From the IMG/VR virus record IMGVR_UViG_3300025084_000138, positions 1-29,953 of that record: DNA of 29,953 nucleotides. One strand, written 5' to 3'. The position numbers and the translations under genes were made by a program. The DNA is from a virus. Its lineage: Duplodnaviria; Caudoviricetes. The notes below the pieces were generated by a model, which worked only from the letters and a program-made list of their open reading frames with translations, made no database searches and had not been told where the DNA came from. Positions 14,959-27,693 of this stretch are shown here, in pieces (position 1 is the stretch's first letter; the number at the start of each line of letters is the position of its first letter).

Positions 14959-15353
14959 TACGATTTATACTTTTTTTTTATTTCACTTATATCAATATCA
15001 TCGGATTTTTTCTGTAATGATGCCGCGGCATCTTCAAGTGAATTCATCAATTCTTCTTTTTCATCTTCACTTAATAAACCAACATCGCTATCATCAACTA
15101 CTTGATGTTTGCTCATGATACGTTGGATTACGGTTGCTAGTTTTAATAAGTTATCATCGTTCTTGACACCGACATCAAGAAGTTCTTTTAGTATGGGACC
15201 CACGATAGCAATATCTTCGATACCTTGTATGTAACCATGTACCTCTTGGACTAAAAGCTCAATTTGAGTTTTCTTTAATTTAGAATTCTCGTATATCTCT
15301 TGAGATAAATCAGAGAAGTTCTTATCACCAAATATTTTAAAGTCTTTTTCCAT
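14958..15353 (-). CDS. Hypothetical helical protein
   Basis: Likely starts at ATG 15353 (MEKDFKIF), just after a TATTTAT motif; TAATG-coupled to the next gene. Confidence 0.7.
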   Translation of the reverse strand: MEKDFKIFGDKNFSDLSQEIYENSKLKKTQIELLVQEVHGYIQGIEDIAIVGPILKELLDVGVKNDDNLLKLATVIQRIMSKHQVVDDSDVGLLSEDEKEELMNSLEDAAASLQKKSDDIDISEIKKKYKS

Positions 15354-15390
15354 AACATTCAATAATAAATATAGAATGATTAGAAAGTTA

Positions 15391-16116
15391 TTACAAAGAA
15401 CCTGTGTTTATTAAGTTGTTTATATGACCTCTAATTAAAACTTCTTGTTGTATTTTTGGGTATATTCTACGAAACACATTAGATACTTGAGTTATTTTAG
15501 AAGTCTTGACATCTGTCATTTCTCTAATCATTATGTATAAAGCTTTCTTATTAAAGTTATCAATATTATCTTTATTTCTACAGAGAAACAATATAGATTC
15601 AGCTACGTCTTTATCATGTTGTTTGGGGAATAAACTTTCTAAATTATTTTCAAAATAAGTTAGTGTCTTTTTAAATACATCAATGGATGGTGATTTTTCT
15701 ATAACTTCATCATCTACTCCTACGTCATAGAGTCTATCAATATCATCATGAATTTTTAACTTCTTATAGTTAGCATTATTATTTAATATAAGATAATTCT
15801 TTGCTACTACGGAGAAATAACTAAATGCTTTACTTCCTTTAGTCTCATCAAACTTATGCATATTGATAACTAAATTAGAAACTACTTCTTCCTGTAGGTC
15901 TCTAAATCCATAACTGAAATAACTAAACTTAAAGGTGTTAATTATATTTTCTGCTAACTTTAAAAAAGCAGCATGAATTTTTTCGGTGTATATTCTATCT
16001 CTGACTATTGGGTTATCAGAATGATTATATCTTATAATGGCATCATGTACTGGTGTGCCAAAATATATTTTACTTTTTTTCTTTCTTTTCTTTTTTACTA
16101 CTTTCTTTGTTGCCAT
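15391..16116 (-). CDS. gp55: Phage sigma factor for late transcription (T4 gp55-like)
   Basis: FLKLAENI...F..Y...DLQEE......MHKFDETKGSKAFSYFSVVAKN resembles the gp55 core. GAGG SD precedes ATG 16116. Confidence 0.7.
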   Translation of the reverse strand: MATKKVVKKKRKKKSKIYFGTPVHDAIIRYNHSDNPIVRDRIYTEKIHAAFLKLAENIINTFKFSYFSYGFRDLQEEVVSNLVINMHKFDETKGSKAFSYFSVVAKNYLILNNNANYKKLKIHDDIDRLYDVGVDDEVIEKSPSIDVFKKTLTYFENNLESLFPKQHDKDVAESILFLCRNKDNIDNFNKKALYIMIREMTDVKTSKITQVSNVFRRIYPKIQQEVLIRGHINNLINTGSL

Positions 16117-16378
16117 CATCAACCTCGGTTTCAAATAAATTATTTAATTCGTTCCCAAGTTGTTTTATCTCATCGAAGAAAAAACCAACTTCATCATCGG
16201 ATTCGAATGTACCTTTATTATCTATTATTTTAAGTTGATGTTTTATATTTTCTATAGTATTGTTTATATTTAGTATTATTTCTTCATAGTTATTAATTCG
16301 TTTCAATGCATAAAAAGTTACTAAACTCATACAGAGTGCAATAATTCCTAATAAAACGGTTATTATGTAATGTAACAA
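16070..16378 (-). CDS. Hypothetical membrane-anchored coiled-coil protein
   Basis: N-terminal hydrophobic helix, then heptad-like sequence and FESDDEVGFFF. Confidence 0.7.
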   Translation of the reverse strand: MLHYIITVLLGIIALCMSLVTFYALKRINNYEEIILNINNTIENIKHQLKIIDNKGTFESDDEVGFFFDEIKQLGNELNNLFETEVDDGNKESSKKEKKEKK

Positions 16379-16516
16379 TTAAGATTCTTCTTCTATTATT
16401 TTTATTTCTTCTTCGACTTTATCAATCACTTCAGTAAGGTACGTTAAATCTTTATCTTCTTCAATTATTAATAATAAATCTCGCACTTCTTGTAGAAATG
16501 CCAAAAATTCATGCAT
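16379..16516 (-). CDS. 45-aa acidic hypothetical protein (not in the ORF track)
   Basis: MHEFLAFLQEVRDLLLIIEEDK...EEES*; TAATG overlap upstream; fills the gap exactly. Confidence 0.65.
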   Translation of the reverse strand: MHEFLAFLQEVRDLLLIIEEDKDLTYLTEVIDKVEEEIKIIEEES

Positions 16517-16821
16517 TAAGATTCTCCAATTATTTGATTCATTAATTGTTTAATATCGTCATCATCATAATCATCTCCACATAATTCATTATCAATTATA
16601 TTACGTAGTTTAGAATATTTGATTTTTACCGTATCAATCATTTCAATATCTTCACCTTCAACAACATCTAATATATCATTTAGATTATCATTTAATTCTA
16701 ATAATCTTTTTTTGACTTTATAGAACATTTCTTTATGTTGAGATTGTGCGAATTCTAATTCATCTAATCTAGTCATGATGGTAGTTAAAACAATTACGAT
16801 TTGTTCGTCTTGATTTTTCAT
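16516..16821 (-). CDS. Hypothetical acidic coiled-coil protein
   Basis: 101-aa ORF preceded by TATTTAT. Confidence 0.7.
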   Translation of the reverse strand: MKNQDEQIVIVLTTIMTRLDELEFAQSQHKEMFYKVKKRLLELNDNLNDILDVVEGEDIEMIDTVKIKYSKLRNIIDNELCGDDYDDDDIKQLMNQIIGES

Positions 16822-16889
16822 ATATATCCATAAATAGTGCCGTATTAATAAAATCGTTTAAAGTTTAAGTGTTATATCAATGTGATATT

Positions 16890-17090
16890 TTATTCATCAT
16901 CCGTATAATCGTCCATTTCGATAGTGTCTAATTCATCTTCATCGTAATATTCAAGATTGATTCGTTTATTCCTTTTATAATTAGGATCAGTTTTCATTGT
17001 TTTATTATCAAGTGATCTCATTTGTTTTTTATCATTATTAGTTAGCATACAATCCTTCATAAATTGTGCCATATCTATTTTTTTATTCAT
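16890..17090 (-). CDS. Hypothetical protein with an acidic tail
   Basis: 66 aa; GAGG SD. Confidence 0.65.
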   Translation of the reverse strand: MNKKIDMAQFMKDCMLTNNDKKQMRSLDNKTMKTDPNYKRNKRINLEYYDEDELDTIEMDDYTDDE

Positions 17091-17120
17091 TATTAACCTC
17101 TTATGTTTAAATAAATTTTA

Positions 17121-17218
17121 GGGGCATAGAAGAAAGGAAGAAAGAACTATGCCCCATATAGAACCTCTTAAAATGAGATTCAATTCTTTGGAGAACGATA
17201 ACCTATTTGTTTATCCGA
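17121..17218 (-). ncRNA. Candidate small RNA or structured leader with an anti-SD loop
   Basis: Directly downstream of a sigma70 promoter. Hairpins GAUAA/UUAUC, GAAUCUC/GAGGUUC and GGGGCAUAG/CUAUGCCCC, the last with a 17-nt all-pyrimidine loop. Confidence 0.5.
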
Positions 17219-17221
17219 TAT

Positions 17222-17260
17222 AATATACACATAAATTACATTAAAGTCAAGCATTATTTT
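17222..17260 (-). promoter_or_regulatory. Sigma70-type early promoter (copy 1)
   Basis: AAAATAATGC-TTGACT-17 nt-TATATT. Confidence 0.85.
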
Positions 17261-17712
17261 TTATTATTCATCATATCTTGTTTAGTTTTATTCTTATGGC
17301 AGGGACGGCATAAGGTTTGCATATTATTTAATCCATAGTATGACCAATCTAACTTATTGGCTTTAATTCCCTTTTGTTCCATCAATGGTTTAACGTGGTC
17401 CAAGTCCCAAGTACGTCTTGTACATTGTTTTCCGCAATCATTACACTTTCCTTTGTCTCGTTTCCATATATGTTTTCTTGCTTCTGTAGGGTGGTGTATT
17501 ATCATATAATCCGTGGCACAATCTTGATGCCAAGACTTACGAGTATTGTGTATTTTATTCTCTATAATCTTTTTACCACACCAACGGCATATTCCTTTCT
17601 CTTGTACATAATATGAATCAGGCTTTGGTGGTTTACGAAAGTCTCCATTCCATTTTTCCTTTTTCTTACCAAAGGTATGTTTTTTTCTTTTACCGAATCT
17701 ACTTAAAGGCAT
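17254..17712 (-). CDS. HNH endonuclease
   Basis: RDKGKCNDCG...DLDHVKPL...NMQTLCRPCHKNKT. Confidence 0.88.
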   Translation of the reverse strand: MPLSRFGKRKKHTFGKKKEKWNGDFRKPPKPDSYYVQEKGICRWCGKKIIENKIHNTRKSWHQDCATDYMIIHHPTEARKHIWKRDKGKCNDCGKQCTRRTWDLDHVKPLMEQKGIKANKLDWSYYGLNNMQTLCRPCHKNKTKQDMMNNKK

Positions 17713-18036
17713 TTATTTTATTTGTAAATCTTGTATCCACTTGGGAACATTGTTTTCCATATAATGTTGTATTACAAACGCTTCACATATATGAGAGAAG
17801 AACCAAGTAAAAGAAAGTATTGGAACATAAATCTGATAATCCAATCCCACCTTACTTATACCTAACCAAGTTAAGAATAACATTCCTATTGTTTTAGTTA
17901 AGAAACTTATACCAGTAAAACCCAGTGACATAGTATTACCACGTTGCATAACAACATAAGTTCCAATAATCAAATGTAGTAAGTTTAATACGATAGGTGC
18001 TAATACACCCAAGGTAACCATTAGTAAATAATTCAT
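17713..18036 (-). CDS. Hypothetical membrane protein (about 3 TM)
   Basis: Three hydrophobic stretches; coupled to the transglycosylase gene, so a holin-like role is possible but unproven. Confidence 0.65.
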   Translation of the reverse strand: MNYLLMVTLGVLAPIVLNLLHLIIGTYVVMQRGNTMSLGFTGISFLTKTIGMLFLTWLGISKVGLDYQIYVPILSFTWFFSHICEAFVIQHYMENNVPKWIQDLQIK

Positions 18037-18611
18037 TATAAATTCTTATATATTCTCTTTACATAAAAGTTGTTCTTAATATAATTTGAACTATACTTTT
18101 TCGTAATGGTAGGACCATGACTATAGGCCGTAAGTGTAGCATCCATGTCATCAAAATGATTATTTAAATGTGATAAGTATTTAATACCTACGGTAACGTT
18201 AATATAAGGATCAAATAAATCGTTTTTTGGTGTTTTGAATTCAGACATAGCAGTTTCGGGTAATATTTGCATTAATCCAATAGCACCACTCGTTGATATT
18301 GCTTTATGATCCCAACTTGATTCGGTTTGTATTACGGCTTTAACCATATCATAATCTACACCATATTCATCACATAATGCATTAGTATAAATTAATAAGT
18401 GTTTAAGTTTAGATTTATTCAAAGTTGAATTAATTTCATTAGCTTCCAATTCAAAGTCGCCTCTAATTAAAGGAGCATTTACCATACGAACAATGGTTTC
18501 TGTTTTGGTTTGAATTGTAGGTGGATTATGTGTGATTTCTTTATACAATACTACTGATAAAGAAGTAAATAATACACCTAATAAAAAGTGTAGTCGATTA
18601 TTATTTAACAT
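18036..18611 (-). CDS. Lytic transglycosylase (SLT domain) with N-terminal TM/signal
   Basis: AVIQTESSW...AIS..GAIGLMQILPETA...N...G.KYL...AYSHG. Confidence 0.92.
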   Translation of the reverse strand: MLNNNRLHFLLGVLFTSLSVVLYKEITHNPPTIQTKTETIVRMVNAPLIRGDFELEANEINSTLNKSKLKHLLIYTNALCDEYGVDYDMVKAVIQTESSWDHKAISTSGAIGLMQILPETAMSEFKTPKNDLFDPYINVTVGIKYLSHLNNHFDDMDATLTAYSHGPTITKKYSSNYIKNNFYVKRIYKNL

Positions 18612-18643
18612 ATGATTTCCCTTTCGTTTGTTAATGTTATTAA

Positions 18644-18708
18644 TAAATAGTGACTCGTCATCTTTAAGCCATTTATCTGTGAGGACTAAGAATTCAAGCC
18701 ACTATTTA
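18644..18708. repeat. Inverted repeat / stem-loop in the transglycosylase leader
   Basis: TAAATAGTGACTCG (18644-18657) and CAAGCCACTATTTA (18695-18708); pairs fully with G-U on the minus strand. Confidence 0.6.
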
Positions 18709-18711
18709 AAT

Positions 18712-19141
18712 ATTTGGAATTTAGGTAGGATGTGAGACTAACGATTACTCACAAATGCCAAAAGGTCTGATAAAGTTTACTACTCATACTAACATCCTTT
18801 CAGTTACGAAAGTTACTCCGAAAGATGGTTAATCCCGTTGAAGTGAACACAACTTCTGATGTTATGCCTTACCCCTTTATCATGGGTTATTAGGCAACAA
18901 TGGTAAGAATCTCGGTTATTAAACCACTCTCTTACAATGAGTTAGAAAAATCGTTGTTTTTCTTAGTATTATGACATTTCTTTCAGTTCACAGATGTCTC
19001 CGTTTTAACTACCCACATTCGAGCTATTAAAATCTCACCACAAGAAGAACTTACTGAACAATAACCCCTTTCTCTAAAAAAGAGTTTATTCTGTCAATCC
19101 CACACAAAGATAGCAAGTCTTTGTGCTTCCTATTTCCAAAT
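18712..19141 (-). ncRNA. Large (~430 nt) highly structured non-coding RNA candidate
   Basis: No ORF of 60 aa or more; dedicated promoter; ends pair (AUUUGGAA/UUCCAAAU); 12-bp long-range helix UGUGGGAUUGAC/GUUAGUCUCACA; at least 7 internal hairpins. Confidence 0.75.
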
Positions 19142-19235
19142 TGTCAAAAAACTATGAGTTGATGCCAGAAGTATCAGCAGTACCGATACTAGCAGTGATA
19201 ACTAAATATCCTAATCAACCCAAATCTTGTACCAT

Positions 19236-19264
19236 AATATACACATAATATTAATATATGTCAA
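19236..19264 (-). promoter_or_regulatory. Sigma70-type promoter (copy 2) driving the large ncRNA
   Basis: TTGACA-17 nt-TATATT. Confidence 0.85.
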
Positions 19265-19467
19265 GTCTTTTTTTTAAGTTTTTTAAAAAACTTTAATTCC
19301 TTTGATGTCATCATTTGTAACTTAGATAAGTTATCCATTATCTTACCTTTCTGCACCAAAGATATTTTATCTTCATCATATAACTTATTGAGTTTTTCTT
19401 GAGCCCGATAGTATCCGAACTCCATGAATTCTTCTACGATGATGTGGTAAATTGATTTGTTTTCCAT
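19261..19467 (-). CDS. Hypothetical protein
   Basis: 68-aa ORF. Confidence 0.6.
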   Translation of the reverse strand: MENKSIYHIIVEEFMEFGYYRAQEKLNKLYDEDKISLVQKGKIMDNLSKLQMMTSKELKFFKKLKKKT

Positions 19468-19534
19468 ATGAGAGAATTTTTTAAAATTTTTTGAGAGTCT
19501 TTTCGTTGGCTATTTCTTATATATATTGGCTTTA

Positions 19535-19825
19535 TTATTTCGCACTTATAGTATCATTCAATACTACAACATCAAATTCATATCTCTTCCACATTTCATT
19601 CAATTGTTTTAAAGTTGATTTAGTATAAACAACCGTATCGTCATTAAGAATCGTATCATGTAGGGCATCTACGTGTTCCCAATCACTACGTTTCCAGACG
19701 ATTTTACCATCCGAATTTTTCCTTTCAACATAATTACCCATATTTTCATAACCATTTTTCTCACACCAATCTTCAATGCGAGTTCTCAAGGATTTTAATT
19801 TATTTAATAATGTTTGTCTTTTCAA
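19535..19825 (-). CDS. Hypothetical protein
   Basis: 96-aa ORF with TTG start abutting the upstream stop. Confidence 0.65.
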   Translation of the reverse strand: MKRQTLLNKLKSLRTRIEDWCEKNGYENMGNYVERKNSDGKIVWKRSDWEHVDALHDTILNDDTVVYTKSTLKQLNEMWKRYEFDVVVLNDTISAK

Positions 19826-20065
19826 TTATAATGGATTTACTACAGGTGTATTCATAACTTCTTCTAGTTCTTTTCCAGATATAACTTTATCTTCATCCAA
19901 TAGAGTTCTTTCGATTTCATCTTTAAGATTATACACGTCATTTCGTGCACCATCTATATAAGACTTGCCTTCTGAAACACCTTCCCATTCTGGCAAAGAA
20001 TAGTAAGCGTCATCTAAATGACCTTCTATTTCTACTAACGTGTTTAATATTTCTTTTAATGTCAT
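19826..20065 (-). CDS. Hypothetical acidic early protein
   Basis: AAGGA SD directly after an early promoter. Confidence 0.75.
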   Translation of the reverse strand: MTLKEILNTLVEIEGHLDDAYYSLPEWEGVSEGKSYIDGARNDVYNLKDEIERTLLDEDKVISGKELEEVMNTPVVNPL

Positions 20066-20091
20066 TGTTTTTTTCCTTTTCTTAACACCTA

Positions 20092-20130
20092 ATAATACGA
20101 CAAAATAATGATAAAGTCAAGCATTATTTT
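20092..20130 (-). promoter_or_regulatory. Sigma70-type early promoter (copy 3)
   Basis: AAAATAATGC-TTGACT-17 nt-TATTAT, then leader TAGGTGTTAAGAAAAGGAAAAAAACAATG. Confidence 0.85.
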
Positions 20131-20380
20131 TAAGTTTTTTAAAATAATTTAAAACTTTATTTCGAGTGTATTTAATACTATGACTTAAAGGAATACGTCG
20201 GGTTCCCCTTTTCCACCAATGTAATCTACCATCACCACCATCAAATGCTTCCCACCTACATTTAGACCAGATACATTTCCATTGATATCTATCAGTATAT
20301 CTTTCAAATGGTTTCATAGTCCAACCACAATGACATTCTGGACTATGTTTATAATATTTTTTTAATAACAACTTAAACAT
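20117..20380 (-). CDS. Small Zn-ribbon-like protein
   Basis: PECHCG...M...WKCIWSKC. Confidence 0.6.
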   Translation of the reverse strand: MFKLLLKKYYKHSPECHCGWTMKPFERYTDRYQWKCIWSKCRWEAFDGGDGRLHWWKRGTRRIPLSHSIKYTRNKVLNYFKKLKNNA

Positions 20381-20799
20381 TATTTTTTAAGTCTTTTCTT
20401 AAATCTCTTATGCATTTTATTTAATGCCTGTTTTTGTTTGATACTTAAAGTACCACGATTTTTAACTTGTTTCTCTACACTATTTAAGAAATCTTCAGCA
20501 CCATATTCATAACTTCTTTCGTAATTACATTCATACAATAGTTTTTGAACCATCCTTACTTTCTGAACCGCTGTTTCTTTTTTTGTTTTATAATTAGGAT
20601 CATTTTTTTTAAAGAAATATTTAGCATAATTACTAATGGCATTGTTTATGGCAGTTTCTTGTTTCTCTGATAAACTATATCCCCCTGAAAGCTTATTATG
20701 CATATCAGCTACAAAACTCTTATAGCCATTATCATTAACCCAATAGGATTCATCTTTTAAGATGTGGTCTAATTGTTGTTTTCTTTTAACGTAATTCAT
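20380..20799 (-). CDS. Hypothetical protein with an internal duplication
   Basis: SFVADMHNKLSGGYSLSEKQ and DFLNSVEKQVKNRGTLSIKQ repeats. Confidence 0.75.
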   Translation of the reverse strand: MNYVKRKQQLDHILKDESYWVNDNGYKSFVADMHNKLSGGYSLSEKQETAINNAISNYAKYFFKKNDPNYKTKKETAVQKVRMVQKLLYECNYERSYEYGAEDFLNSVEKQVKNRGTLSIKQKQALNKMHKRFKKRLKK

Positions 20800-21161
20800 T
20801 ATAAGTAATTAGGACCTGTCCATGAATACCAATCAGAACCATCATAAAATATAGAACCTCTGACGTGTTTAGCTGGTGCTCTCCAAGTAGCAGCCTTGAA
20901 TACATCACCGGTAAAGTAAGGTATTCCTTTATGTACACCAGCTTTTTTAGCAACAAAACCCCAAACTGATGAGCCGTGTATTATCTTATCAAATTTCCTA
21001 CCAGTAGTAATTCTTAACTCATTCTTAAACCTATGAGAACTTTCTGTTTTAATCTTTAAAGTCAATTCATCCATATCACGAGGTGGTTCTATACCACTCC
21101 AAGAATCATAGTCATTACCAATCTCAATAAGTAGATTGTCTAATGCTTCTTTATATTCCAT
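20799..21161 (-). CDS. Conserved phage early hypothetical protein
   Basis: GRKFDKI...SVWGFV...GDVFKAATWRAPAKHVRGSI motif, recalled from T4-like marine phages; AAGGA SD. Confidence 0.75.
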   Translation of the reverse strand: MEYKEALDNLLIEIGNDYDSWSGIEPPRDMDELTLKIKTESSHRFKNELRITTGRKFDKIIHGSSVWGFVAKKAGVHKGIPYFTGDVFKAATWRAPAKHVRGSIFYDGSDWYSWTGPNYL

Positions 21162-21192
21162 TTGTTTATTTATTTCCTTTTCTTAACACCCA

Positions 21193-21231
21193 AAGATACA
21201 AAGAATAAATGATAAAGTCAAGCATTATTTT
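21193..21231 (-). promoter_or_regulatory. Sigma70-type early promoter (copy 4)
   Basis: AAAATAATGC-TTGACT-17 nt-TATCTT. Confidence 0.85.
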
Positions 21232-21331
21232 CATTTATTTTTCATTTCCAAAGAGTTCCTGTATAAAAGTTAACATTATTTTACCATTTCTTTAGTTAGT
21301 TTTTTCATTATATCTCCGAGTGTGAGTTAAT

Positions 21332-21772
21332 TTACAATAATCCCTGTTGTTTCATTTTATCTCTTATTTTATCTACATAATGTTTAGAATTTTTTAATGT
21401 TGTTGTAGTGCCTGTTTCCTTCTCGTATTCTACTCTGTAATGTTTGATAGCACCAATAATTTGATTTTGTTTTATCATACTCTCTAACTCTTGATCCAAT
21501 TTACTTCGCCAGTTCCAGTCAACATCACCGTTCCGTACCTTTATTCTAAACTTCCATATCTTATTAGCATCAACCATTATTTCTTTTATTTCATGTGGCA
21601 TCATCTCATCATATCTTTGCTCGACATCCACAAGTAGATTATGAGCCTCTATATTACTTGGTTGAAATAAATGGTTATCATCAGGTTGGTCTGGTTCTGT
21701 AGCTTTACATAACTTAACTAACCTATTTAATTTTTCGTACATCCATTCTTTTTTATTACTTGACGTTTTCAT
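21332..21772 (-). CDS. Hypothetical protein with a C-terminal ribosomal L7/L12-CTD-like motif
   Basis: IGAIKHYR...TG....LKNSKHYVD. Confidence 0.6.
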   Translation of the reverse strand: MKTSSNKKEWMYEKLNRLVKLCKATEPDQPDDNHLFQPSNIEAHNLLVDVEQRYDEMMPHEIKEIMVDANKIWKFRIKVRNGDVDWNWRSKLDQELESMIKQNQIIGAIKHYRVEYEKETGTTTTLKNSKHYVDKIRDKMKQQGLL

Positions 21773-21774
21773 AA

Positions 21775-21996
21775 TTAGCCACCTGACTCATCGTGTTTTT
21801 CAATCCAAATGTTTCCGTGACCATCAGACCCCCATTTTTTATGTAATTTTTTCTGTCCGTCGCTATCACTAAGATTAAATTGCTCTATCCAAAGAGACAA
21901 TGCACTTGGTGTTAATTTTTGAAATAATTCACCTCGATTTCTCCAAGTTAAATTTTGTATTTCACCATAGATGTATTTAGCTAATTTCTCACTCAT
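21775..21996 (-). CDS. Hypothetical protein (paralog of the upstream gene)
   Basis: KLAKYI...WIEQF.L...NIW motifs shared with 21998..22213. Confidence 0.7.
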   Translation of the reverse strand: MSEKLAKYIYGEIQNLTWRNRGELFQKLTPSALSLWIEQFNLSDSDGQKKLHKKWGSDGHGNIWIEKHDESGG

Positions 21997-21997
21997 C

Positions 21998-22213
21998 TTA
22001 TTCCTTATAATCTGAAACCCATATATTACATTGATATCTGTCTGACCACTCGGAGTGGCCTACACACTTTCTTAACTTAAATTGTTCTATCCAAAACTCT
22101 AATGTAGATTCTAGTGGCTTCTCTACAAATAACATATCCTTACCCAATCCTTTAACAGTACATCCACCCATCTCTTTGACTATATACTTTGCTAACTTTT
22201 TATTATCTATCAT
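21998..22213 (-). CDS. Hypothetical protein, 71 aa (start corrected)
   Basis: The ORF-track N-terminus overlaps a tRNA; MIDNKKLAKYI aligns with the paralog's start. Confidence 0.7.
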   Translation of the reverse strand: MIDNKKLAKYIVKEMGGCTVKGLGKDMLFVEKPLESTLEFWIEQFKLRKCVGHSEWSDRYQCNIWVSDYKE

Positions 22214-22222
22214 AATACCGAG

Positions 22223-22298
22223 TGGAGCTCCGGGGATTCGAACCCCGCTGATATCCTCCGTGCAAAGGAGGTGAACACCCCAAGCATTCCCGAGCCCC
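22223..22298 (-). tRNA. tRNA-Ala (TGC)
   Basis: Acceptor GGGGCTC/GAGCTCC with G3:U70, anticodon arm CCTCC-TTTGCAC-GGAGG, T arm CGGGG-TTCGAAT-CCCCG, A73; CCA not encoded. Confidence 0.88.
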
Positions 22299-22303
22299 AT
22301 ATT

Positions 22304-22768
22304 TTATAAATATATTCTATTTCCAGTATTTACCATTTGTTCATACCACAATCCTTCTCTGTCGTGCCACACATAGGGTGATTCTGGATTTTCTGTCCAT
22401 CCGAATTGCCCATACCACTCTAAATCTTTACGAAGTAGATTAGCACGATGTGATGAATGAAAATCTTCTCTACCTAACCAATGAGGAATGTCAATCATAT
22501 CCATATTGGGCTTGACATCATAAAACTTCATATTGTTATTATACCCACGACTAATCCATTCAGTAATTATTGTATTAGTATAGAGTTTAAGACATTCCAC
22601 ATAAGGTGTCCACATAATAGTAATAGGATGATTTCTCCAACCCTTAGCATCTGGATTTTGTATAGCATTTATTATCTGCATACCCTCGACTCGTTGTTTA
22701 CCAAGTCTACGCCAATCCAATACTTTAGCGGATTGACTAAATGATTCGTATGGTAGAAATGTCTGCAT
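22304..22768 (-). CDS. Pyrimidine-dimer DNA glycosylase/endonuclease V-like protein (MSMEG_6728 family)
   Basis: MQTFLPY..F..SA..LD..RLGKQRVE...GWRNHP...MW...P.WLG...HSSHRANLLRKD. Confidence 0.8.
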   Translation of the reverse strand: MQTFLPYESFSQSAKVLDWRRLGKQRVEGMQIINAIQNPDAKGWRNHPITIMWTPYVECLKLYTNTIITEWISRGYNNNMKFYDVKPNMDMIDIPHWLGREDFHSSHRANLLRKDLEWYGQFGWTENPESPYVWHDREGLWYEQMVNTGNRIYL

Positions 22769-22774
22769 AATGTT

Positions 22775-22858
22775 TTAAAGTTGTATCCATAAAATTAAGA
22801 GTAGTAAGAATATTACAAACCCCATAACCTTACAAGCAATTGATTCAAACTCATTCAT
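22775..22858 (-). CDS. 27-aa single-TM peptide (not in the ORF track)
   Basis: MNEFESIACKVMGFVIFLLLLILWIQL*; TAATG-coupled; fills the gap. Confidence 0.5.
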   Translation of the reverse strand: MNEFESIACKVMGFVIFLLLLILWIQL

Positions 22859-23382
22859 TAAAAATCTCCTGGTGCTACTTGGAAAGTATTTAAACCTAAG
22901 TCTCTCCACATCTTCACAACCTTGTCTCTATCATCAACTACAAGAAAGACATCATCAATATTTACGAAAGTATCTAACATCTCTTTTTTAAGAATTTCAT
23001 CAGGCATAAACCTCATTTCTTTAGTAGCTGGATTACCATCGGCGATGGGCCAGGAATCATCCTTGAACTTATCAGGTCTCATAACTAACAGATGAAATGG
23101 AACTCTATTGCGAGATAACCAAGACTTAGTAGTGAAGAACGACCTATCATTCCTACCTGAAAAGATAACGATTTTAAATCCATCTTCGGCAAGTAATTGA
23201 GCCATTTTAATTACTGGTTTATTAGGTGTATCTAAACTAATATTATCGGGGTCGAAGAATACATCCCAATCCATTTTATCATTGGTTAAGGATTTTGCTC
23301 TCCGAGCATCTATATTAGCTAGAGTACCATCAAGGTCAAATATAACTGTGTTCTTTTTCATAGCGTGTCCTGATTGTTTCAT
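22858..23382 (-). CDS. HAD-family phosphatase (T4 PseT/polynucleotide kinase 3'-phosphatase domain-like)
   Basis: FDLDGT, FSGR, LVMRP, D...K and VDDR..V..MWR..GL..FQVA.GDF; no kinase domain. Confidence 0.88.
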   Translation of the reverse strand: MKQSGHAMKKNTVIFDLDGTLANIDARRAKSLTNDKMDWDVFFDPDNISLDTPNKPVIKMAQLLAEDGFKIVIFSGRNDRSFFTTKSWLSRNRVPFHLLVMRPDKFKDDSWPIADGNPATKEMRFMPDEILKKEMLDTFVNIDDVFLVVDDRDKVVKMWRDLGLNTFQVAPGDF

Positions 23383-27602: not shown

Positions 27603-27619
27603 TATTTATATTCAATTTG

Positions 27620-27693
27620 AGAGCCGGGTGAGATTCGAACTCACGAAAAGCGGGTTTGCAATCCGCCCCATTAGACCACTCTGGCACCGACTC
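27620..27693 (-). tRNA. tRNA-Cys (GCA)
   Basis: Acceptor GAGTCGG/CCGGCTC, U73, anticodon loop TT-GCA-AA, T arm GTGAG-TTCGAAT-CTCAC; CCA not encoded. Confidence 0.9.

Follow-up and report, generated by a model that had tools for sequence, protein, structure and literature searches.

The window, that is, the whole stretch of 29,953 bases analysed here, is a fragment of a virus record with an estimated completeness of ~16%. Baseplate genes and a gene resembling late sigma factors are encoded on it, together with numerous small ORFs. Its closest cultured matches are distant, with proteins 31-43% identical to those of Microcystis phage Mel-JY01 and of immuto phages of Flavobacterium. No match to the window was found in 50,697 phage records, and its relative L155 gave a single 40-nt piece at chance level in a comparison with phage records. 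A tRNA-Cys at 27619-27693 is predicted by both ARAGORN and Rfam; a tRNA-Ala proposed by ARAGORN at 22222-22298 (minus strand) overlaps an ORF (21998-22300) and has no Rfam match at the gathering threshold. On the minus strand, an ORF-free gap of 649 nt (19260-18612), which an earlier note on this DNA had put at ~650 nt, separates a 68-aa ORF from a lytic transglycosylase gene (18036..18611, minus strand; Pfam SLT, E 3e-26). This gene is followed by a hydrophobic ORF of 107 aa, which has no family assignment, and by an HNH endonuclease gene (17254..18036, minus strand). These genes provide the context of the gap, and the transglycosylase gene is no obligatory partner of the RNA encoded there.

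The gap is headed by a sigma-70-type promoter, TTGACA-17-TATATT (19236..19264, minus strand), which was correctly recognized in the earlier note and has 11/12 matches and a predicted start near 19229. It is among the two best of 47 promoter-like sites in 15000-23000, a region for which shuffles expect 48.8 sites. The promoter lies in the same position in the relatives L007, L191, L210, L214, L207, and L023 and is not found immediately upstream of the RNA in L017, L190, L181, L211, L215, L216, and L185. Promoter-like sequences of the type TTGAC(A/T)-17-TAT(A/T/C)(T/A)T recur in the window at 17250, 19264, 20120, and 21221 (minus strand), ahead of small variable genes. No terminator was found between the promoter and the same-strand downstream genes.

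According to the aligned relatives, the conserved RNA begins with the leader GUUUUUUGA, which is itself conserved, and finishes with the closing stem P0 (18712..19151, minus strand); its folded part, ~430 nt, comprises 19141-18712. The range originally given for it, 18712..19229, contains this core and also a separable 5' RNA module (19153..19229, minus strand) that lies outside it. The 5' module is a three-way junction with a variable arm and double changes at 4/19 pairs (9 rows); it is absent from L155 and replaced in L185. A separate 3' stem-loop module (18644..18708, minus strand) has double changes at 7/20 pairs (11 rows), comes after the RNA at every full-length subfamily-1 locus examined and persists at the empty sites L003, L004, L005, and L008. 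It holds an inner UYUUAGUC/GACUUAAARA helix, with copies at L003:344-418, L023:1006-1082, and L155:1651-1727. Neither module has an Rfam match. Other swappable non-coding modules are located upstream of the RNA (L190, L181, L200, L211, L215, L216, L218, L185, L188, L203) or between the RNA and the 3' module (L214, L181, L023). Some are tandemly repeated, and together they form a shuffled RNA array at the site of the RNA.

At gathering thresholds, Rfam reports only a tRNA in the window. In E-value mode, the two best of 7 matches at E <= 10 in 18500-19400 are both to manA (RF01745), namely 18928-18727 with 52.9 bits (E 1.6e-12) and 19125-18934 with 20.9 bits (E 0.005), both below the gathering cut-off of 55.2. 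The earlier note had suggested a compact ROOL/GOLLD relative or a new large RNA class and had named ROOL, GOLLD, RNase P, tmRNA, and intron models for comparison; none of these matches at E <= 10, and the place of the proposed classes is taken by the two sub-threshold manA matches.

Relatives were found in motif scans of viral contigs, in which overlapping sets contained 6/10, 6/6, 9/16, and 8/19 true matches with chance matches as the remainder, and among metagenome contigs, in which 26/48 matches were true (21 full-length, 5 partial) and several were identical or near-identical to the window. No homologue was found among 120 loci of cellular genomes (51/64 parts scanned). For subfamily 1, 15 full-length rows were picked to span the variants; they comprise 13 distinct cores that are 65-99% identical to the window. 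In the 120-pair structure derived from these same 15 rows, 98.6% of 1799 cells are paired, and double changes occur at 41/120 pairs compared to 2-9 in slid-partner controls. A tree-based count gave 47 parsimony double-change events over 117 pairs compared to 1-3 in controls, many of them on two long branches. Since the structure was read from the rows in which it was counted and many events fall on two long branches, the real test is a second subfamily, described below. With both subfamilies considered, it is close to certain that the locus encodes a folded double manA RNA.

The fold is nested, consisting of one manA with a second manA core inside its P8 arm. Helices are numbered according to our mapping from the Rfam structure, 30 ordinary manA RNAs, and the contacts given in the text of a preprint on manA cages. 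P0 encloses P1 and a single P2, and P2 encloses P3a, the P4a junction, P8-I, and P9b. The P8 arm contains, in this order, an inner hairpin (loop L8a), a junction closed by P8-II (P9a, P3b, P4b), and the strand J8. P0 corresponds to the closing stem of the earlier note (19141-19134/18719-18712 with UAGG/CCUA), which is paired in 94% of cells (15 rows), and the hairpin CACAAAGA/UCUUUGUG, also drawn there, is P1, which is present in a single copy (19102..19126, minus strand) with double changes at 6/9 pairs. The 5' part of the outer manA (core a, 18955..19101, minus strand), which is supported by the weaker Rfam match and by covariation, is composed of the P2 5' strand GGGAU, P3a, the P4a junction with P5a (loop RUGGU), P6a, and P7a (loop RACA), the P8-I 5' strand (18977-18970), and the beginning of the inner P8 hairpin (18944..18963, minus strand). 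The inner manA core (core b, 18783..18941, minus strand) lies within the stronger Rfam match. It is closed by P8-II (18941-18937/18787-18783), contains P9a, P3b, and the P4b junction with P5b (loop GUUGUG), P6b (loop UAACC), and P7b (loop GUAACU in the window, RUAACY across rows), and has no P2 of its own. The 3' part of the outer manA (18727..18762, minus strand) supplies the P8-I 3' strand (18762-18755), P9b (18752-18732), and the P2 3' strand AUCCU (18731-18727). P2 (GGGAU/AUCCY) is 100% paired in subfamily 1, and its strands are 367-391 nt apart.

The linear order P3-P4-P8-P9 is thus present twice, and the P8 strands pair crosswise: P8-I is paired in 89/90 cells and P8-II in 75/75, compared to 44/75 and 36/75 for the unswapped alternatives. 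From this crosswise pairing, a tandem duplication with a strand swap is inferred, by which core b would have become nested in an otherwise whole manA. The two cores are connected by pairings with compensatory changes. A cross-core pseudoknot (18768..18882, minus strand) joins loop L3b (18882-18875) to J8 in the outer P8 arm (18775-18768) by 8 bp that are 100% paired in subfamily 1, 4 of them with double changes. Across the P8 arm, a kiss forms between loops L8a (18956-18951) and L9b (18746-18740); it reads AACGAUU/AAUCGUU in the window, and its 3 core pairs hold in 43/45 cells of subfamily 1. Candidate L5 kisses join UGGU of L5a to ACCA of L6b and GUUGU of L5b to either GUAAC of L7b or ACA of L7a, the partner being ambiguous. 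They are complementary in all rows with no double changes (0/9 pairs in subfamily 1, 0/5 in subfamily 2). A symmetric second pseudoknot, L3a-J8a (19077-19069/18950-18942), is 90% paired in subfamily 1 and was dropped, because the inner P8 hairpin takes up that strand in subfamily 2 and L3a is closed internally.

Subfamily 2 was reached through the manA alignment in supplement 5 of PMC2864571. In this file, five ocean rows carry core-b loops, begin at a P9-like hairpin set in the P1 columns, and have gaps in place of the P2 5' strand. These rows look like the rear halves of double manA RNAs, and a core a would be expected upstream of them. Two Photobacterium rows of the same alignment have the loops GUUGUG and GACAU, as do L5b and L7a here. 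A motif built on the five ocean rows found 49 viral loci, of which 44 are matched by the core-b model (58-81 bits) and 5 are chance. Directly upstream, the core-a model matches in 40/44 loci (38 at E < 0.002), and the other 4 have <125 nt of upstream sequence. In an alignment of 22 rows, in which the columns beneath the search motif are invariant by construction, the same topology recurs with 99.7% pairing and double changes at 33/86 pairs compared to 1-5 in controls. P8-I has 8-10 bp in 22/22 rows and P8-II is present, P2 shows one double change, and L3b-J8 has 6 bp, 2 of them with double changes. The L8a-L9b kiss occurs as ACGA/UCGU, GCGA/UCGC, or AUGA/UCAU in 22/22 rows. The RNAs have the same ends as those of subfamily 1, starting with the GUUUUUUGA leader and stopping after AUCCC.

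Covariation in two subfamilies bears out the central claim of the earlier note, that the phage encodes on the minus strand a large non-coding RNA of ~430 nt with an elaborate fold, and several of the smaller helices in the note are supported as well. Each of the hairpins that it lists can be drawn in the window. GUAAGA/UCUUAC and UGCCU..ACCC/GGGU..AGGCA were retained against 15 relatives, and AGAAAAA/UUUUUCU is 92% paired in subfamily 1 and has a counterpart that covaries by eye in subfamily 2. The proposed 12-bp long-range helix has 0 double changes, 14/180 broken cells, and strands that are used by P1, P2, and P9b. GACAU/AUGUC and CAUCUUUCGG/CUGAAAGGAUG can be drawn in the window and are only 66% and 56% paired, respectively, across 15 relatives. 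The loop-loop pairing GUGAAC/GUUCAC has one pair broken in 8/15 rows by a change that is compensated inside hairpin P5b. Taken together, the five contested helices, AGAAAAA/UUUUUCU among them, reach 78.9% pairing with 0 events. Of the three GAGUA copies regarded as loop-E-like, the only one kept is at 18785 (14/15 rows), so that the loop-E reading is unsupported. Folding energy, which the note had proposed as a test against shuffles, is weak and does not resolve the strand (z -1.84 for minus, -2.25 for plus). In a shuffle test of 7 relatives the sense strand reached -2.6 to -5.7 and the window antisense beat the window sense; folding energy was rejected as evidence.

The kinship with manA was followed through both cores. 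Core b exceeds the manA cut-off in the relative L190 (55.8 bits), and the rear half of subfamily 2 does so in 12/12 loci (60.9-67.9 bits), although these scores are not fully independent because the Rfam seed contains core-b-like rows. In the other direction, a core-b model finds the manA of 30/30 ordinary loci at the right place and above all background (13.9-25.5 bits, next 11.0). The likeness of core a is fainter. Rfam lists the front half of subfamily 2 at E <= 0.1 in 1/12 loci, and manA matches core a of L185 without P1 and P2 at 24.2 bits (E 1.1e-4). A model of ordinary manA and core b, from which core a was excluded, matches core a in 12/12 loci at 12.4-27.3 bits, two of them at E 2-3e-4, against a background of up to 13.4 bits; core a of the window is a weak match (13.9 bits, E 0.1, second of 13 matches). 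The core-a model finds neither core b nor ordinary manA, the core-b model misses core a, and sequence-only profiles of either core find no single manA RNAs at E < 0.01.

The manA order of P3 with its GAAUAA internal loop, a P4 junction with three hairpins, P8, and P9 occurs twice, and both P1 and the closing helix P2 of manA are present. The RNA is a doubled manA that descends from manA; having two cores as opposed to a single one of ~190-200 nt, it is a variant and no ordinary member. The doubling appears to be a trait of this lineage, and ordinary manA gave one match each in 44/44 records tested (of 120 loci, picked by an ordinary-type motif). As manA is described in the text of PMC2864571, the likeness covers the order and shape of P1, P2, P3 with the GAAUAA loop, the P4 junction with P5-P7, P8, and P9, the L5 loops GUGGUG/GUUGUG, an ACCA loop, the occurrence in marine phages, and a promoter just upstream. 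In contrast to manA, the double RNA has ~430 nt instead of ~190, P3-P9 twice within one P2 with the second set placed inside the P8 arm, P0 as an additional closing stem, the ACCA loop on P6b, and gathering scores that neither half reaches in the window. Genes for mannose, nucleotides, ibpA, or photosynthesis, which neighbor manA, are not found downstream of the double RNA. A literature search, which covered subscription papers thinly and extended to the cage preprint without its supplement, found no description of a doubled manA.

The earlier note had tied the RNA to a unit of transglycosylase, membrane protein, and HNH genes, which is not borne out by its distribution. Of 16 relatives of the transglycosylase gene, 2 have records that begin inside it. 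The RNA is present in 3 of the others and missing from the site in 11, so that it is absent at 11/14 informative sites; these 11 fragmentary records are also without a manA match. The genes next to the RNA are of five kinds, namely the SLT transglycosylase, an 80-aa unknown, a second unknown, tRNA-Gly (L023), and a gp32-like SSB. In the loci L017 and L023, a POPDC-family membrane protein gene (L017:2573-3016) and a Mom-family gene (L023:119-901) follow the transglycosylase gene and tRNA-Gly, respectively.

Part of the stretch is contained in 20 sequencing runs, of which 17 are recorded as RNA, from 13 marine studies. In 8/8 runs examined, which were chosen because they contain the stretch, near-identical contigs lie on the element, and in 6/8 a single contig spans both cores (18758-19100, 18713-19129, 18635-19116, 18719-19113, 18731-19124, and 18728-19126). 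The evidence consists of contigs without a DNA control; it shows presence in RNA libraries with ends that agree with the fold, and not strand, level, or a single transcript. For the same reason it is uninformative that, in the 8 runs, no contig covers 19229-19154 and none covers the three downstream genes except one 45-nt piece. In run X20, one contig joins across a 300-nt skip (19826-20127), which likely reflects a strain without that ORF.

The explanation preferred here, with a probability of roughly 0.55, is that the locus produces a stand-alone double manA transcript of ~430 bases that is predicted to assemble with its own copies into a closed particle made of RNA alone. The particle would be a long-lived decoy or scaffold, optional for the phage. 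The RNA would have arisen when manA P3-P9 was duplicated in tandem, after which the P8 strands were swapped and the cores underwent complementary losses: the L8 hairpin survived in core a and the L3 contact in core b, with the L3 contact gone from core a and L8 and P2 gone from core b. It would be trimmed from a longer, modular transcript. The L5-type kisses would then act between molecules, and copies would join by loop-loop pairings to form the particle, which might serve the phage in the infected cell. It is very probable that the molecule functions as RNA in its own right rather than switching the gene behind it. That it multimerises is a prediction by analogy that is somewhat favored, and the role as decoy or scaffold, the likeliest use in view of the patchy presence and the early-type promoter, is tentative.

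The analogy refers to single manA RNAs of <200 nt, for which the text of a preprint (bioRxiv 10.64898/2026.07.01.735769) describes pentamer-based 8-, 10-, and 60-mers in vitro that are held together by L5-L7', L8-L9', and L3-L8' kisses and GNRA contacts; larger particles, possibly 120- or 180-mers, are mentioned in that text and a biological role is not given in it. All three kinds of kisses known from the manA_A0F1 60-mer, the manA_pho decamers, and the 8/10-mer of manA_6FAB have counterparts in the double RNA, and together with the existence of these cages this leads to the prediction of a two-core cage subunit. Two of the kinds covary in the double RNA, while the L5 kind shows invariant complementarity alone. 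The cage subunits are identical single chains, whereas the double RNA, known from its sequence, joins two unlike cores in one chain. ROOL and GOLLD, as presented by Kretsch et al. 2025 (PMC12286853), are likewise large, ornate, phage-borne, apparently dispensable, sometimes located beside tRNA genes (as in L023), and possible cages. The double manA RNA differs from them in being shorter, having a repeated manA core, and matching neither model.

The main alternative is that the RNA acts as a monomer or a small oligomer, complete in itself, with its kisses satisfied within the molecule; it would bind a protein of the host or the phage and form no cage. Covariation is silent on whether a pairing is formed within or between molecules, and the doubling may have turned contacts inward; both covarying tertiary pairings join parts of one chain across the nested arm, P0 seals the ends, and core b is without P2. 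This alternative is nevertheless considered unlikely, because three loops of the L5/L7 type per core set are invariant, seemingly beyond the need of internal closure, and all manA variants in the text of the preprint (10.64898/2026.07.01.735769) formed closed oligomers. A tandem riboswitch or another cis-acting leader of the downstream genes would fit the position of the RNA between a promoter and same-strand genes, the one RNA contig that extends to 18635, and the classification of manA as a cis-regulatory or riboswitch candidate by Weinberg et al. 2010 (PMC2864571). Absence at 11/14 sites and the unrelated next genes argue against a riboswitch, as do a closed fold with no visible expression platform, the separate module and ~100 nt that lie between the RNA and the start codon, and close relatives that express the same gene without the RNA. 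Variable downstream genes, a promoter that is not always directly upstream, and interchangeable modules fit an optional RNA gene rather than a switch, and the leader reading is improbable.

The remaining readings have little weight. An RNA of the virion or of DNA packaging, for which phi29 pRNA is the analogue, would agree with a phage-encoded family that multimerises by loop-loop pairing and is absent from the cellular-genome loci. The neighbors of the RNA, however, are small variable genes and RNA modules instead of head genes, and its absence from most closely related sites, albeit in fragmentary records in which it could lie elsewhere, makes such a role very unlikely. The notion that the RNA is a compact relative of ROOL/GOLLD, or forms a new and unrelated class, and that core a resembles manA by chance draws on the sub-threshold Rfam matches in the window and the weakness of core a. 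It is hardly tenable in view of the lack of any ROOL/GOLLD match, the core b scores over the cut-off in L190 and subfamily 2, the manA match to the L185 core a, and the success of the model blind to core a. An element that splices itself or moves with the help of the nearby HNH endonuclease would account for filled and empty sites and for an HNH gene 1 kb downstream. No intron or ribozyme model matches, no gene is interrupted, and no contig joint skipping the RNA occurs in the 8 runs; moreover, other RNA modules come and go at the same place, which fits recombination and leaves this reading with next to no likelihood.

If the self-joining double manA RNA is the right explanation, it could be that its two unlike cores, with their different loop codes, occupy positions that are not equivalent in a cage of larger size or different shape, used as a marine-phage compartment or decoy. 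This extension is speculative and rather doubtful at present. If true, 60 chains could for example provide 120 cores, or rings could be built of alternating cores, and the RNA would be a counterpart of pseudo-equivalent virus capsid proteins, the duplication having hard-wired both cores into one chain. Annotation of the Rfam type either catches the rear half alone or misses the RNA under the cut-off. With its predicted contacts, the double manA RNA is a ready target for cryo-EM. The manA family has long been filed as cis-regulatory, as a riboswitch candidate in the text of PMC2864571. The widespread doubled and nested form argues that it is a family of structural RNAs and would show how RNA assemblies may grow by domain duplication and strand swapping.
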